Source of the DNA: Escherichia coli
GTDB lineage: Bacteria; Pseudomonadota; Gammaproteobacteria; Enterobacterales; Enterobacteriaceae
Length of the DNA: 64,000 nucleotides
Direction: 5' to 3' (one strand)
Assembly (NCBI RefSeq): GCF_002854065.1
Contig: NZ_CP024147.1
This document shows, one piece after another, positions 1 through 5,699 of the stretch; the first letter of the stretch is position 1; every line of letters starts with the position of its first letter. The position numbers were made by a program, and so were the translations under genes. The notes beneath the pieces are model-generated. The model saw only the letters and a list, made by a program, of their open reading frames with translations, did not search any database and was not told the DNA's origin.

Positions 1-1313
1 CAGAGCAGGTCGATGCTGCTGTGCGCGCGGCAGATGCAGCATTTGCCGAATGGGGGCAAACCACGCCGAAAGTGCGTGCGGAATGTCTGCTGAAACTGGC
101 TGATGTTATCGAAGAAAATGGTCAGGTTTTTGCCGAACTGGAGTCCCGTAATTGTGGCAAACCGCTGCATAGTGCGTTCAATGATGAAATCCCGGCGATT
201 GTCGATGTTTTTCGCTTTTTCGCGGGTGCGGCGCGCTGTCTGAATGGTCTGGCGGCAGGTGAATATCTTGAAGGTCATACTTCGATGATCCGTCGCGATC
301 CGTTGGGGGTCGTGGCTTCTATCGCACCGTGGAATTATCCGCTGATGATGGCAGCGTGGAAACTGGCTCCGGCGCTGGCGGCAGGGAACTGCGTAGTGCT
401 TAAACCATCAGAAATTACCCCGCTGACCGCGTTGAAGTTGGCAGAGCTGGCGAAAGATATCTTCCCGGCAGGCGTGATTAACGTACTGTTTGGCAGAGGC
501 AAAACGGTGGGCGATCCGCTGACCGGACATCCTAAAGTGCGGATGGTGTCGCTGACGGGCTCTATCGCCACCGGCGAGCACATCATCAGCCATACCGCGC
601 CGTCCATTAAGCGTACTCATATGGAACTTGGTGGCAAAGCGCCAGTGATTGTTTTTGATGATGCGGATATTGAAGCAGTGGTCGAAGGTGTACGTACATT
701 TGGCTATTACAATGCTGGACAGGATTGTACTGCGGCTTGTCGGATCTACGCGCAAAAAGGCATTTACGATACGCTGGTGGAAAAACTGGGTGCTGCGGTG
801 GCAACGTTAAAATCTGGTGCGCCGGATGACGAGTCTACGGAGCTTGGACCTTTAAGCTCGCTGGCGCATCTCGAACGCGTCAGCAAGGCAGTAGAAGAGG
901 CGAAAGCGACAGGGCACATCAAAGTGATCACTGGCGGTGAAAAGCGCAAGGGTAATGGCTATTACTATGCGCCGACGCTGCTGGCTGGCGCATTACAGGA
1001 CGATGCCATCGTGCAAAAAGAGGTATTTGGTCCAGTAGTGAGTGTTACGCTCTTCGACAACGAAGAACAGGTGGTGAACTGGGCGAATGACAGCCAGTAC
1101 GGACTTGCATCTTCGGTATGGACGAAAGATGTGGGCAGGGCGCATCGCGTCAGTGCACGGCTGCAATATGGTTGTACCTGGGTCAATACCCATTTCATGC
1201 TGGTAAGTGAAATGCCGCACGGTGGGCAGAAACTTTCTGGTTACGGCAAGGATATGTCACTTTATGGGCTGGAGGATTACACCGTCGTCCGCCACGTCAT
1301 GGTTAAACATTAA
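1..1313 (+). CDS. patD: gamma-aminobutyraldehyde dehydrogenase, 5-prime truncated by window edge
   Basis: ORF 21..1313 (430 aa) with aldehyde dehydrogenase motifs (ELGGKAP, catalytic Cys context GQDCTAA); reading frame is open to the window start, so the N-terminus lies upstream. Confidence 0.9.
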
Positions 1314-1323
1314 GTTAGATGTT

Positions 1324-1356
1324 AGTGGCTGTTATAGGACGGCCACTATCGTTTTA
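1324..1356 (+). terminator. rho-independent terminator-like hairpin after patD
   Basis: Inverted repeat AGTGGC...GCCACT followed by a T-run (cgtttt) just after the patD stop. Confidence 0.5.
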
Positions 1357-1522
1357 GGTTCTGAGTTTAATGGCGGTTAAGTATTAGAATGATTACATTA
1401 ATAACTAGCGTAAAAATTAGGCTAAATGTTTGATGGCGATTTTTCATCCTGTCACAGTTGATTAGCATAAGGCTTTAGAGTATCGTTATTAAACTAATAA
1501 TTTATAAGTAGAAGTATTAACA

Positions 1523-2332
1523 ATGAAAGTTCAATTGTACAAATTCACGGAAGATAAAAATAAAACCCTTACCTTCAGATGGACGAAAAAACACTTTGAG
1601 TTTTGTATGGATAATAAAATCTTTTTAAATCATAAGGGGAAGAAGTCGTATAAAGAAAGGAATTTATTTCTTTTCTCAAAAGGTGACAAGATAACAATTG
1701 AAGATAATGTTATTGCTGAAGAATATTCAACAATGCCTGTAAAAAATTTCTCCAGTGTCGGCGCTTTTTCATTTCCGACCTGTCATTTTTCAGGGAATAT
1801 ACGTATAGGTCGATTTTGTAGTATTGCATCAAATGTAAAAATAATGGGTGGAAATCATCCTTTGAATCGTTTTACTACTCACATGATGACTTATAACGGT
1901 GAATTTGATAAGTTTGCTATGAGTGAGTTTGAACGTAGCTGGACATTGAAACCATTCATTACCAAACCTGAAAATCCGATTATAGGAAATGATGTCTGGA
2001 TAGGAAATGATGTTGTATTGAAAGGTGGCATCGCAATAGGTGATGGTGCTGTTATTGCTGCCAATTCCGTTGTTACCAAAGATGTGCCCCCATATGCCAT
2101 AGTTGCAGGAGTTCCTGCAAAAATAATCAGATTTAGGTTTGATTCAAATGTTATTGATGAACTGTTGAGAATAAAATGGTGGAATTATAACTACTCAGAT
2201 CTTCCGGATAATAACAAGTGTGATGATATAAATTATTTTGTTGAAGAGATGAATCGATTGATATCAAATGGAAATATTCAAGAGAGGGACTATAAAAAAT
2301 TCAATCTTTCTGAGGTATTCAGAGGCCTATAA
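1523..2332 (+). CDS. Vat/XAT-family hexapeptide-repeat acetyltransferase (streptogramin A / chloramphenicol acetyltransferase-like)
   Basis: 269 aa ORF; left-handed beta-helix hexapeptide repeats (IGNDVWIGNDVVLKGGIAIGDGAVIAANSVVTKDVPPYAIVAGVPAKIIRFRF), GGNH putative catalytic His segment and C-terminal IKWWNY motif, all typical of Vat(D)/CatB-type xenobiotic acetyltransferases; gene lies in a visibly AT-rich stretch. Confidence 0.75.
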   Translation: MKVQLYKFTEDKNKTLTFRWTKKHFEFCMDNKIFLNHKGKKSYKERNLFLFSKGDKITIEDNVIAEEYSTMPVKNFSSVGAFSFPTCHFSGNIRIGRFCSIASNVKIMGGNHPLNRFTTHMMTYNGEFDKFAMSEFERSWTLKPFITKPENPIIGNDVWIGNDVVLKGGIAIGDGAVIAANSVVTKDVPPYAIVAGVPAKIIRFRFDSNVIDELLRIKWWNYNYSDLPDNNKCDDINYFVEEMNRLISNGNIQERDYKKFNLSEVFRGL

Positions 2333-2678
2333 TTATCTGTTTTGCATGATAAATGGGCAAGATAACCAGGGCGGGGTTTGCAATTTCAATGGGGCAGCGT
2401 CATCAAGGAGGTTGCAAACATCCTGCCATGCATATACTTTACGCCATCTTTTTATATTTGCGTTATTCCTTGAAAGTATAAAGCATTTATAGACTCCCGC
2501 GCGTATAAAGTATTCATGATAGAAAAATGTGAAAACAAGATTCCCTTTGAGTCAGTAAGCTGTTTGTATAGACGACAGTAGGGGGATGTTTTCTACTCAT
2601 TTCAATGTAGATGCCAGCAAAAAGAAGTAAATATTAAGGATAATGTTGTAAACCTGGAGAGTATGAGAAGATCTTGCG

Positions 2679-2709
2679 TACTGTCAGAGAGTTGATTTCT
2701 CTGACAGTA
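2679..2709 (-). terminator. hairpin downstream of yncL
   Basis: Perfect inverted repeat TACTGTCAGAGAG-ttgattt-CTCTGACAGTA immediately 3-prime of the yncL stop; no clear U-tract. Confidence 0.4.
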
Positions 2710-2733
2710 CGTGCTGCGTGCAAAATCACTACA

Positions 2734-2829
2734 TCAAATAAACCAGCCAAATCTCATAGAGATAAGAGTAAACAAACCAACAGCAGCAAAGACATTTATC
2801 AGTACTACAGTTCTACTGGAAACATTCAT
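2734..2829 (-). CDS. yncL: small membrane protein YncL (31 aa)
   Basis: Minus-strand ATG at 2829 to TGA at 2734 encodes MNVSSRTVVLINVFAAVGLFTLISMRFGWFI, a single-TM small protein matching recalled YncL; absent from the ORF track because it is under 60 aa. Confidence 0.7.
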   Translation of the reverse strand: MNVSSRTVVLINVFAAVGLFTLISMRFGWFI

Positions 2830-3023
2830 TTTTGCCACCTTTTATCATTGCCCCTATGTGTATAGTACGGGTTAAGAAAATCCGCAATAATACTCATTCT
2901 GAAGATGGATAAGGGCAAGTTGCTGTTTGATGTTTTTTTCTCAAACCGGTTAAAAAACTTGATGCACGTCAAAAAATGACGCATATTTGCGCGCGTTTTA
3001 TTCATCTGGCTGGACGCCCGTAC

Positions 3024-3197
3024 ATGTCTCTCTATCAACATATGCTTGTTTTTTATGCGGTTATGGCAGCAATCTCATTTCTTATCACCTGGTTTCTTTC
3101 TCACGATAAGAAACGCATCCGTTTCTTAAGCGCCTTTCTGGTGGGGGCAACATGGCCGATGAGTTTCCCGGTGGCGCTGTTGTTTTCACTGTTTTAA
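3024..3197 (+). CDS. ortT: orphan toxin OrtT (YdcX), small membrane protein
   Basis: Internal Met of ORF 2976..3197 gives the 57 aa MSLYQHMLVFYAVMAAISFLITWFLSHDKKRIRFLSAFLVGATWPMSFPVALLFSLF. Confidence 0.8.
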   Translation: MSLYQHMLVFYAVMAAISFLITWFLSHDKKRIRFLSAFLVGATWPMSFPVALLFSLF

Positions 3198-3282
3198 ATC
3201 TTACTCACTGGCTTGACGGCACCACGCAGACTTATATCATTTGGATGAATCGATAAATTTCACAAGTGGCTAAGGAGAAAGT

Positions 3283-3516
3283 ATGTCGCATCTGGATGAA
3301 GTCATCGCGCGCGTGGATGCCGCGATTGAAGAGAGCGTCATTGCCCATATGAACGAATTATTAATCGCCCTGAGCGATGACGCGGAGTTAAGTCGGGAAG
3401 ATCGCTACACCCAGCAGCAACGTCTGCGCACAGCGATCGCCCATCACGGTCGCAAGCATAAAGAAGATATGGAAGCTCGCCACGAACAGTTAACCAAAGG
3501 CGGCACCATCCTGTGA
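3283..3516 (+). CDS. ydcY: uncharacterized protein YdcY
   Basis: 77 aa ORF preceded by AAGGAGAAAG ribosome-binding site; position and size as in K-12. Confidence 0.8.
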   Translation: MSHLDEVIARVDAAIEESVIAHMNELLIALSDDAELSREDRYTQQQRLRTAIAHHGRKHKEDMEARHEQLTKGGTIL

Positions 3517-3966
3517 TTAAAATGAGCGTCTGGCCACCAGCCAGGCGCCAACCACAAGTAAAATTGCGCCACAAATTGGGCCGATCAACGCCCGTAGTGG
3601 TACGCCATGGCTGCGGAAGATATCCAGCACCAGACCGCCAATCAGCTGGCTGGCGACCAATACCGCAATAGTTGTCGCCGCTCCCACATTCTGATATCCG
3701 CTGATACTGGCGAAGACAAAAAACGATCCCAGCAAGCCAGGTATAAGTGTCCACCAGCGCACGCTGGACACCAGTTCGCCAAACCCCGCCATACCTTGTT
3801 TAAACCATAAAATAGAAACAAAGAGCACAATCCCCACCAGTGAGTTCAGCAACATGGCGATGAGAATGGTAGAGGAGGTCTGGGTGATGCGCACCATCAG
3901 CGTGTTCTGGACTACCAGACCAATTCCGGCGGCAATCAAAAAGGCAAGGGTGAGCGACTGATTCAT
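3517..3966 (-). CDS. ydcZ: inner membrane protein YdcZ (DMT-like)
   Basis: 149 aa polytopic hydrophobic ORF; 4-bp overlap with mnaT. Confidence 0.85.
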   Translation of the reverse strand: MNQSLTLAFLIAAGIGLVVQNTLMVRITQTSSTILIAMLLNSLVGIVLFVSILWFKQGMAGFGELVSSVRWWTLIPGLLGSFFVFASISGYQNVGAATTIAVLVASQLIGGLVLDIFRSHGVPLRALIGPICGAILLVVGAWLVARRSF

Positions 3967-4481
3967 CCAATCACGTCCGGTTCAGTGCGTTCGTCGAGTT
4001 GCAACTGCATAAATGTCAGATCCAGCCAGCGCCCAAATTTAGTGCCCACCTGCGGCATTTGTGCGGTGACGACAAATCCCAGCGACTGGTGCAGATGCAG
4101 CGAGGCCTGATTTTGCGATTCGATCCCGGCGACCATGACATGCTTCCCGCAATCCCGCGCTTCATCAATCAATCGGCTTAACAATTTACGCCCCAGACCT
4201 TTGCCCTGATGATCGGGATGGACATAAACCGAATGTTCCACGGTATGGCGAAAACCATCGAAACTACGCCAGTCGCCAAATGAGGCATATCCCGTCACTA
4301 CGCCATCTTCTTCACTTACCAGCACCGGATAACCTGCTATGGTCCGCGCTTCAAACCAGGCAATGCGGTTATCTGCATCCACCGTTTGGTCATTCCAGAT
4401 AGCCGCCGTATACAACACGGCGTGGTTATAAATTTCCGCAATGGCAGCACAGTCGGCTTTGCGGGCAAAACGGATGGACAT
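3963..4481 (-). CDS. mnaT: GNAT N-acetyltransferase MnaT (YncA)
   Basis: Internal start MSIRFARKADCAAIAEIYNH; GNAT motifs (HPDHQGKGLGRKLL); the ORF track's 250 aa form is an N-terminal over-extension. Confidence 0.85.
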   Translation of the reverse strand: MSIRFARKADCAAIAEIYNHAVLYTAAIWNDQTVDADNRIAWFEARTIAGYPVLVSEEDGVVTGYASFGDWRSFDGFRHTVEHSVYVHPDHQGKGLGRKLLSRLIDEARDCGKHVMVAGIESQNQASLHLHQSLGFVVTAQMPQVGTKFGRWLDLTFMQLQLDERTEPDVIG

Positions 4482-4661
4482 GTCTGGCCTCAATAAAATA
4501 ATGATGATGATGTTATCAATACTATCGAAAACAGCCCGAAGCAACGGATTCCTCGATGAAATTATTGCGTGTTGCAGAGGGGATGTGACGGCTGCAAACA
4601 AAACCAATCCCGTGAGCCTGCTACTATTGATGGATTCATGCCAAAAGCACAGGAGAGCATT

Positions 4662-5699
4662 ATGGGGCAACAAAAGCAGCGTAATCGACGTTGGGTTCTG
4701 GCCTCGCGTCCACATGGCGCACCAGTTCCGGAGAATTTCCGTCTTGAAGAAGATGATGTCGCCACACCGGGTGAAGGACAGGTGTTACTGCGCACAGTTT
4801 ATTTGTCCCTGGACCCGTATATGCGTGGACGTATGAGCGATGAGCCATCTTATTCACCGCCGGTTGATATTGGCGGCGTGATGGCCGGCGGTACGGTGAG
4901 CCGTGTCGTGGAGTCGAATCATCCTGATTATCAGCCTGGCGATTGGGTGCTGGGCTACAGTGGATGGCAGGACTATGACATATCCAGTGGTGATGATCTG
5001 GTGAAACTTGGCGATCATCCGCAAAATCCATCGTGGTCGCTGGGTATGCTGGGGATGCCAGGCTTTACCGCTTATATGGGGCTGCTGGATATCGGTCAGC
5101 CTAAAGAGGGCGAAACGTTGGTGGTAGCTGCGGCGACAGGACCAGTGGGGGCGACGGTGGGGCAAATCGGCAAACTTAAAGGTTGCAGAGTGGTGGGGGT
5201 AGCCGGTGGCGCGGATAAATGCCGCCATGCTACCGAGGTGTTAGGCTTCGATGTTTGCCTTGATCACCACGCGGACGATTTTGCCGAACAACTGGCGAAA
5301 GCGTGCCCAAAAGGTATTGATATCTATTATGAAAACGTGGGCGGTAAGGTATTTGATGCAGTGCTACCATTACTTAATACATCTGCGCGCATTCCCGTTT
5401 GTGGCTTAGTGAGCAGCTATAACGCTACAGAGCTACCACCCGGTCCGGATCGTTTACCCCTGTTGATGGCAACGGTGCTGAAAAAACGTATTCGCTTGCA
5501 AGGGTTTATTATCGCCCAGGATTATGGTCATCGCATCCATGAGTTTCAGAAGGAGATGGGGCAATGGGTGAAAGAGGATAAAATCCACTACCGCGAAGAA
5601 ATTACTGACGGTTTAGAGAATGCGCCACAGACGTTTATCGGCCTGCTGAAGGGTAAAAACTTCGGCAAAGTGGTGATCCGCGTGGCGGGTGATGATTAA
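4662..5699 (+). CDS. curA: NADPH-dependent curcumin/dihydrocurcumin reductase (MDR superfamily)
   Basis: Start MGQQKQRNRRWVLASRPHG after AGGAGAG ribosome-binding site; 345 aa; medium-chain dehydrogenase Rossmann motif AAATGPVGATVGQIGK. Confidence 0.85.
   Translation: MGQQKQRNRRWVLASRPHGAPVPENFRLEEDDVATPGEGQVLLRTVYLSLDPYMRGRMSDEPSYSPPVDIGGVMAGGTVSRVVESNHPDYQPGDWVLGYSGWQDYDISSGDDLVKLGDHPQNPSWSLGMLGMPGFTAYMGLLDIGQPKEGETLVVAAATGPVGATVGQIGKLKGCRVVGVAGGADKCRHATEVLGFDVCLDHHADDFAEQLAKACPKGIDIYYENVGGKVFDAVLPLLNTSARIPVCGLVSSYNATELPPGPDRLPLLMATVLKKRIRLQGFIIAQDYGHRIHEFQKEMGQWVKEDKIHYREEITDGLENAPQTFIGLLKGKNFGKVVIRVAGDD

Follow-up and report, generated by a model that had tools for sequence, protein, structure and literature searches.

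The divergent small membrane protein genes yncL and ortT in an Escherichia coli chromosomal locus and the open reading frames that obscure them

Introduction

The closest described relatives of the locus considered here are two neighbouring genes of Escherichia coli K-12, yncL (b4598) and ortT (ydcX; b1445). According to a passage in PMC12542507 that cites Hemm et al. 2008 and 2010, YncL is induced by minimal medium, heat shock and stationary phase, and the same paper reports that production of the protein leads to a sublethal, partial depolarisation of the membrane and to nucleoid condensation (PMC12542507). In vivo cleavage of YncL depends on RseP (PMC10470546), a RIL-seq-based study identified yncL as a target of KilS, a predicted sRNA derived from kilR (PMC8175672), and the convergent patD-yncL pair of K-12 has been listed as an excludon (PMC12288877). 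[quoted passage not shown]

OrtT is predicted to possess two transmembrane domains (residues 6-26 and 34-54) and its identity to GhoT, the toxin of the GhoT/GhoS type V toxin-antitoxin system, is given as 63% (PMC4344625). Overproduction of OrtT results in membrane damage, lysis and lower ATP, replacement of F38 abolishes the toxicity of both GhoT and OrtT, and mutation of the ATG start of the 57-amino-acid (aa) ortT construct to ACG was used to test whether OrtT acts at the protein level (PMC4344625). The gene is induced by trimethoprim, RelA, mupirocin and serine hydroxamate and acts during the stringent response, and the toxin is not neutralised by YdcY, GhoS or flanking RNA; a genomic-library screen likewise gave no antitoxin (PMC4344625). 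Here we describe how the corresponding genes are arranged in a 64,000-nucleotide stretch of E. coli DNA (contig NZ_CP024147.1, RefSeq assembly GCF_002854065.1; hereafter the window), in which an initial annotation made from the sequence alone had placed both of them.

Results

Identity of the locus

Positions 2500..3600 of the window are matched at 95-100% identity (megablast) in 5415 of 5426 complete E. coli genomes. Among the best 25 of these 5415 matching genomes, yncL, ortT and ydcY are annotated in every record, and the DMT-family transporter gene adjoining ydcY is named ydcZ in 24. The RefSeq annotation of strain CUWW06, whose sequence shows 100% identity to 2500..3600, places yncL at 2734..2829 on the minus strand, with ortT at 3024..3197 and ydcY at 3283..3516 on the plus strand. 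The gene order and gene lengths are identical in K-12 MG1655 (b4598, b1445 and b1446 for yncL, ortT and ydcY, respectively), with the ATG starts of yncL and ortT at K-12 positions 1517194 (minus strand) and 1517389, respectively, and YdcY (DUF2526) is identical to its K-12 counterpart. The comparison of both peptides with the annotated K-12 proteins, which had been suggested together with the initial annotation, yielded 30 identical residues out of 31 for YncL and 56 out of 57 for OrtT. The sole differences are F13V in YncL, where V13 is also found in two other Escherichia lineages, and A18S in OrtT, where S18 is shared with one other Escherichia lineage and with the aligned position 18 of K-12 GhoT; both are conservative changes within hydrophobic helices. 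We found no evidence against the identification of the two genes as yncL and ortT, and the initial annotation agrees in this respect with curated annotation, hidden Markov models, comparative analysis and the literature. It is practically certain that the region, patD-(insertion)-yncL-ortT-ydcY-ydcZ, represents an ordinary locus of the E. coli chromosome, with two divergent, independently described genes for small inner-membrane proteins.

For the comparative analyses described below, a YdcY-anchored search provided 80 species-level loci, and six Escherichia lineages were aligned with the window and K-12 (8 sequences in total); other genera were reached via OrtT homologues and the contigs carrying them.

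yncL encodes a 31-aa protein with a single hydrophobic segment

The yncL coding sequence (2734..2829, minus strand) comprises 31 aa plus stop (MNVSSRTVVLINVFAAVGLFTLISMRFGWFI), encodes a single-helix small membrane protein and has the same RefSeq boundaries in CUWW06 and K-12. The initial annotation had proposed that a gene of this length and strand was lost below the length threshold of the open reading frame (ORF) listing; the default cutoff of that listing is indeed 60 aa, and we relisted the ORFs at lengths of at least 20 aa. The minus-strand ORF 2734..2838 spans 34 aa from a GTG, and the ATG at 2829, annotated as the start of yncL, is the fourth of its codons. The GTG taken as the start by the listing (2838..2836) sits within the yncL Shine-Dalgarno sequence AAGGTGG (2835..2841, minus strand), which can be read from the sequence 5 nt upstream of the ATG and is invariant in all aligned Escherichia, Salmonella and Citrobacter sequences. 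YncL matches the NCBIfam equivalog NF000537 with 72.5 bits (cutoff 35), residues 1-30 covering model positions 1-30 of 30. The protein had also been described as single-helix, in keeping with a Kyte-Doolittle hydropathy profile that displays one segment, with the best 19-residue window at residues 7-25 (mean 2.22), between R6 and R26. Counted in the minus frame across the 8 Escherichia sequences, the variable sites of yncL number 3, 1 and 8 at the first, second and third codon positions, revealing purifying selection in this frame.

Compared with K-12 YncL (NF000537/Pfam PF28073), the gene described here has the same length of 31 aa, position between patD and ortT, strand, Shine-Dalgarno sequence and single hydrophobic helix, but differs by the F13V replacement and by a 1.3-kb insertion that parts yncL from patD in the present strain. 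The orthologous position downstream of patD and divergent from ortT is nevertheless retained, with patD 1.4 kb away owing to this insertion. The Salmonella orthologue, STnc1110/STM14_1932, first listed as an sRNA, belongs to the same 31-aa family (83% identical over 30 residues), likewise has ortT as its neighbour and exhibits the same GTG mis-start three codons upstream, but the right flank of the Salmonella locus is a Virul_Fac/SrfB gene and not ydcY. By analogy with K-12 and Salmonella, the yncL product would be a 31-aa single-helix, stress-induced membrane protein with the depolarising role that the literature ascribes to YncL. Upstream of the gene, a putative promoter (TTGCGG, 16 nt, CTATAC(A); 2860..2887, minus strand) coincides with a block that hardly changes between Escherichia, Salmonella and Citrobacter, and its candidate -10 element would fit the sigma-S type; transcription would be predicted to begin near 2853 (minus strand).

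A conserved hairpin and an antisense reading frame 3' of yncL

A conserved 14-bp stem-loop (2677..2711, minus strand) is located 3' of yncL. The 74-nt stretch that holds it (2660..2733) folds with -28.5 kcal/mol (z = -5.1), and in the alignment of 8 Escherichia sequences 97.3% of the cells are paired and 4 of the 14 pairs change on both sides, compared with only 22-52% pairing in slid controls. Salmonella and Citrobacter possess hairpins of different sequence at the same place 3' of yncL. Since the E. coli hairpin has no canonical U-tract, a role as the 3' end or terminator of the yncL transcript is plausible rather than firmly indicated; it may alternatively be a 3'-end stabiliser or an element shared by patD and yncL. 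The yncL transcript would be predicted to end near 2670, shortly beyond the hairpin. No Rfam match was obtained for 1200..4000 at E<=1.

The 5' end of a 63-aa plus-strand ORF with a TTG start (2674..2865), which runs antisense to yncL, falls inside this hairpin. Its reading frame is open in the window and in K-12, as it would be if the ORF were a real gene, either alone or beside yncL. In five of the six other Escherichia lineages, however, the frame is disrupted by a stop codon at the start position, a 2-nt indel and internal stops; the predicted product has no match in Pfam or NCBIfam and no hydrophobic segment, and the ORF is annotated in none of the best 25 RefSeq records. When the variable sites of yncL are counted in the frame of this ORF, they are distributed as 8, 1 and 3 over the three codon positions and thus mirror the 3, 1 and 8 of yncL, as is expected for the complement of yncL third positions in a non-coding antisense frame. 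We give the interpretation as a real gene next to no credence; as judged from its sequence, the ORF is an artefact of mechanical ORF listing, and its loss in five of six lineages together with the substitution pattern bears out the earlier assessment that it is spurious. An artefact of the same type is found in Citrobacter, where an 81-aa ORF has been called antisense to yncL (L085 2624..2869).

The ortT start codon

The ortT coding sequence (3024..3197, plus strand) comprises 57 aa plus stop (MSLYQHMLVFYAVMAAISFLITWFLSHDKKRIRFLSAFLVGATWPMSFPVALLFSLF), encodes a two-helix membrane toxin and again has the same RefSeq boundaries in CUWW06 and K-12. The ORF listing instead returned a 73-aa frame, 2976..3197, and the initial annotation had argued that ortT begins at an internal methionine of that frame. 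This methionine is Met17, at position 3024, in accordance with RefSeq, K-12 and the comparative data presented here, and the preceding 16 codons (2976..3023, plus strand; MTHICARFIHLAGRPY) constitute a non-coding 5' extension outside OrtT.

The competing reading, adopted by some gene callers, is that ortT encodes a 73-aa protein starting at ATG 2976. In line with such a protein, no in-frame stop occurs between 2976 and 3024 in any of the aligned Escherichia sequences, both candidate starts have weak ribosome-binding sites, including the Shine-Dalgarno sequence at 3024, and public calls range from 73 to 97 aa, for example a 73-aa 'GhoT/OrtT family toxin' of Shigella flexneri. The upstream ATG, on the other hand, is replaced by ATA in two Escherichia lineages and is absent in Salmonella and Citrobacter, where indels shift the frame, whereas ATG 3024 is kept in both of these genera. 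The variable sites of the extension, distributed as 9, 5 and 5 over the three codon positions, lack a third-position bias, in contrast to the 13, 9 and 40 observed for ortT itself in the same 8 Escherichia sequences, which reveal purifying selection in the annotated frame. ATG 2976 moreover lies in the spacer of a putative promoter ((C)TTGATG, 17 nt, CATATT; 2959..2987, plus strand): the motif (C)TTGAT/TTGCT ... GCATATT upstream of ortT is kept in six genera (Escherichia, Salmonella, Citrobacter, Intestinirhabdus, Buttiauxella and Kosakonia) while its surroundings diverge, and it looks like an ortT promoter, with a predicted transcription start near 2994-2996 (plus strand). Both the Pfam model and GhoT, which itself has 57 aa, fit the shorter form end to end, with OrtT scoring 97.1 bits against PF10753 Toxin_GhoT_OrtT (cutoff 22.1) and residues 4-57 covering model positions 1-55 of 55. 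Finally, the curated K-12 and RefSeq entries use 3024, and the published toxicity test was performed with a plasmid carrying His-tagged 57-aa ortT (PMC4344625). We consider a 73-aa OrtT, a reading already largely refuted, very improbable, and on sequence grounds the 16-codon extension is an artefact of mechanical ORF listing.

A simple sigma-70 promoter/terminator scan detected no more sites than chance expects and none at the conserved blocks 2860..2887 and 2959..2987. Its lone terminator-like match (2996..2979, minus strand), inside the ortT leader, was set aside as probably due to chance. In public databases, ortT is often over-extended at the 5' end, with calls of 73, 77, 82, 87, 88 and 97 aa, some of them oddly named, such as the JGI entry '4-hydroxybenzoate polyprenyltransferase'.

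OrtT is a two-helix relative of GhoT

The initial annotation had described OrtT, like YncL, as a single-helix protein, which our analysis contradicts. The hydropathy profile features two hydrophobic segments, one spanning approximately residues 6-26 and the other 34-57, with the charged loop D28-K-K-R-I-R33 between them, and an AlphaFold2 model of moderate confidence (mean pLDDT 73, pTM 0.39), computed from a shallow alignment of 9 OrtT and GhoT sequences, places helices at residues 3-27 and 29-56; two transmembrane domains had also been predicted previously (PMC4344625). The designation as a described orphan toxin, by contrast, holds, as supported by the literature (PMC4344625) and by the match to PF10753. 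NCBIfam returned no match for either OrtT or YdcY.

Over 57 of 57 residues, the OrtT sequence is 98% identical to K-12 OrtT but 65% identical to K-12 GhoT (b4559), identifying the gene as the orthologue of ortT and not of ghoT. With K-12 OrtT/YdcX (PF10753), it has in common the length of 57 aa, the start, the neighbours yncL and ydcY, the two hydrophobic helices and F38, and it differs only by A18S; F38 is invariant in the 8 OrtT sequences and in GhoT. GhoT of the type V system shares the length of 57 aa, the membership of PF10753 and the two-helix layout, but no ghoS-like gene adjoins ortT. More generally, no antitoxin gene is found next to ortT, as the gaps of 194 nt towards yncL and 85 nt towards ydcY contain no annotated gene. 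The ortT product is a 57-aa two-helix hairpin protein and a GhoT paralogue, reported to lack a cognate antitoxin (PMC4344625).

The divergent yncL-ortT pair is conserved in at least four genera

Among the 80 species-level loci of the YdcY-anchored search, ydcY adjoins yncL-ortT only in Escherichia. Viewed from ydcY, the pair appeared to be restricted to this genus, an idea that was overturned by contigs from Salmonella, Citrobacter and Intestinirhabdus carrying the pair (L084 2707..3174, L085 2713..3174 and L088 2216..2674, respectively). OrtT orthologues of 82-91% identity are present in Salmonella, Citrobacter, Intestinirhabdus, Buttiauxella and Kosakonia, and in the first three of these genera yncL, labelled PF28073:YncL in the precomputed annotations of the contigs, lies divergently 189-198 nt upstream of ortT, the same arrangement as in Escherichia. 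The right flank of the pair in these three genera is a Virul_Fac/SrfB gene instead of ydcY, and in Intestinirhabdus the left flank is a Glyco_hydro_25 gene instead of patD. In Kosakonia, no yncL is detectable beside ortT and two GhoT/OrtT-family genes occur in tandem (L087 3001..3183 and 3270..3443), while in Buttiauxella (L089) ortT lacks an adjacent yncL and a DUF1508 gene occupies that place. As a separate observation, ydcY follows a periplasmic solute-binding-protein gene in the genera other than Escherichia.

The persistence of the divergent arrangement and of its 189-198 nt spacing in at least four genera, despite changed flanks, raises the question of whether the two genes form one functional module, that is, a divergent membrane-depolarising pair with a shared bidirectional stress-control region of about 190 nt in which YncL modulates OrtT, for example through heteromeric contacts within the membrane. 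Loss of membrane potential or membrane damage has been reported for both proteins (PMC12542507, PMC4344625). In addition, judging by a forward primer placed just inside the 5' end of yncL, the published 'UTR' construct did not contain the full yncL gene (PMC4344625), so that YncL has not been directly tested as a partner of OrtT. The genera concerned are closely related, however, and inherited synteny suffices to explain the linkage, while Kosakonia and Buttiauxella have ortT without an adjoining yncL. A genomic-library screen gave no antitoxin for OrtT (PMC4344625), yncL and ortT have separate conserved promoter-like blocks, and the reported regulators differ, with sigma-S and heat shock for yncL but predicted sigma-E and sigma-H promoters for ortT. 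Taken together, we regard such a module as unlikely and favour the interpretation of two independently described genes in conserved linkage.

An insertion between patD and yncL and other neighbouring features

Between patD and yncL, the window carries an inserted segment of 1313 bp (1315..2627), whose GC content of 34% is low compared with the 49-54% of the flanking DNA; the insertion splits this convergent gene pair. It contains the annotated gene of a CatB-related O-acetyltransferase (1523..2332, plus strand), a hexapeptide-repeat protein of 269 aa that is 99.6% identical at the protein level to the acetyltransferase of CUWW06. Of 5426 complete E. coli genomes, 1158 carry the insertion. It is missing in K-12 as well as in L003, L004, L007 and L008 (four of the six other Escherichia lineages), where patD abuts yncL; the remaining two Escherichia loci provide no patD match. 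The hexanucleotide ATTAAG is common to both junctions.

To the right of the insertion, the window is colinear with K-12 from 2628 to 5635. CUWW06 carries an IS2 element between mnaT and curA (L001 5207..6435), which is absent at the equivalent place in the window, at about 4700; the window, whose acetyltransferase also differs slightly, therefore stems from another strain. The mechanically listed 250-aa ORF 3963..4715 (minus strand) over-extends mnaT, which is annotated with 172 aa (3963..4481), and represents another artefact of taking the first start after a stop.

Discussion

Both yncL and ortT are already described and curated, and nothing central to their identification is new. What the present analysis establishes is their identity and boundaries in this strain, purifying selection in the annotated frames, the two hydrophobic helices of OrtT and the conserved linkage of the pair. 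Its importance beyond annotation hygiene is slight. Within that scope, the locus provides a case in which a real gene of 31 aa falls below a length threshold and is masked by a longer but spurious ORF on the opposite strand, and a second one in which a toxin gene is called too long because the first start after a stop is taken.

In terms of the biology of the organism, the literature on K-12 OrtT suggests that the protein encoded here would damage the membrane, lower ATP and slow growth in the stringent response. The only mildly interesting by-product is that yncL and the orphan toxin gene ortT have stayed linked across genera.
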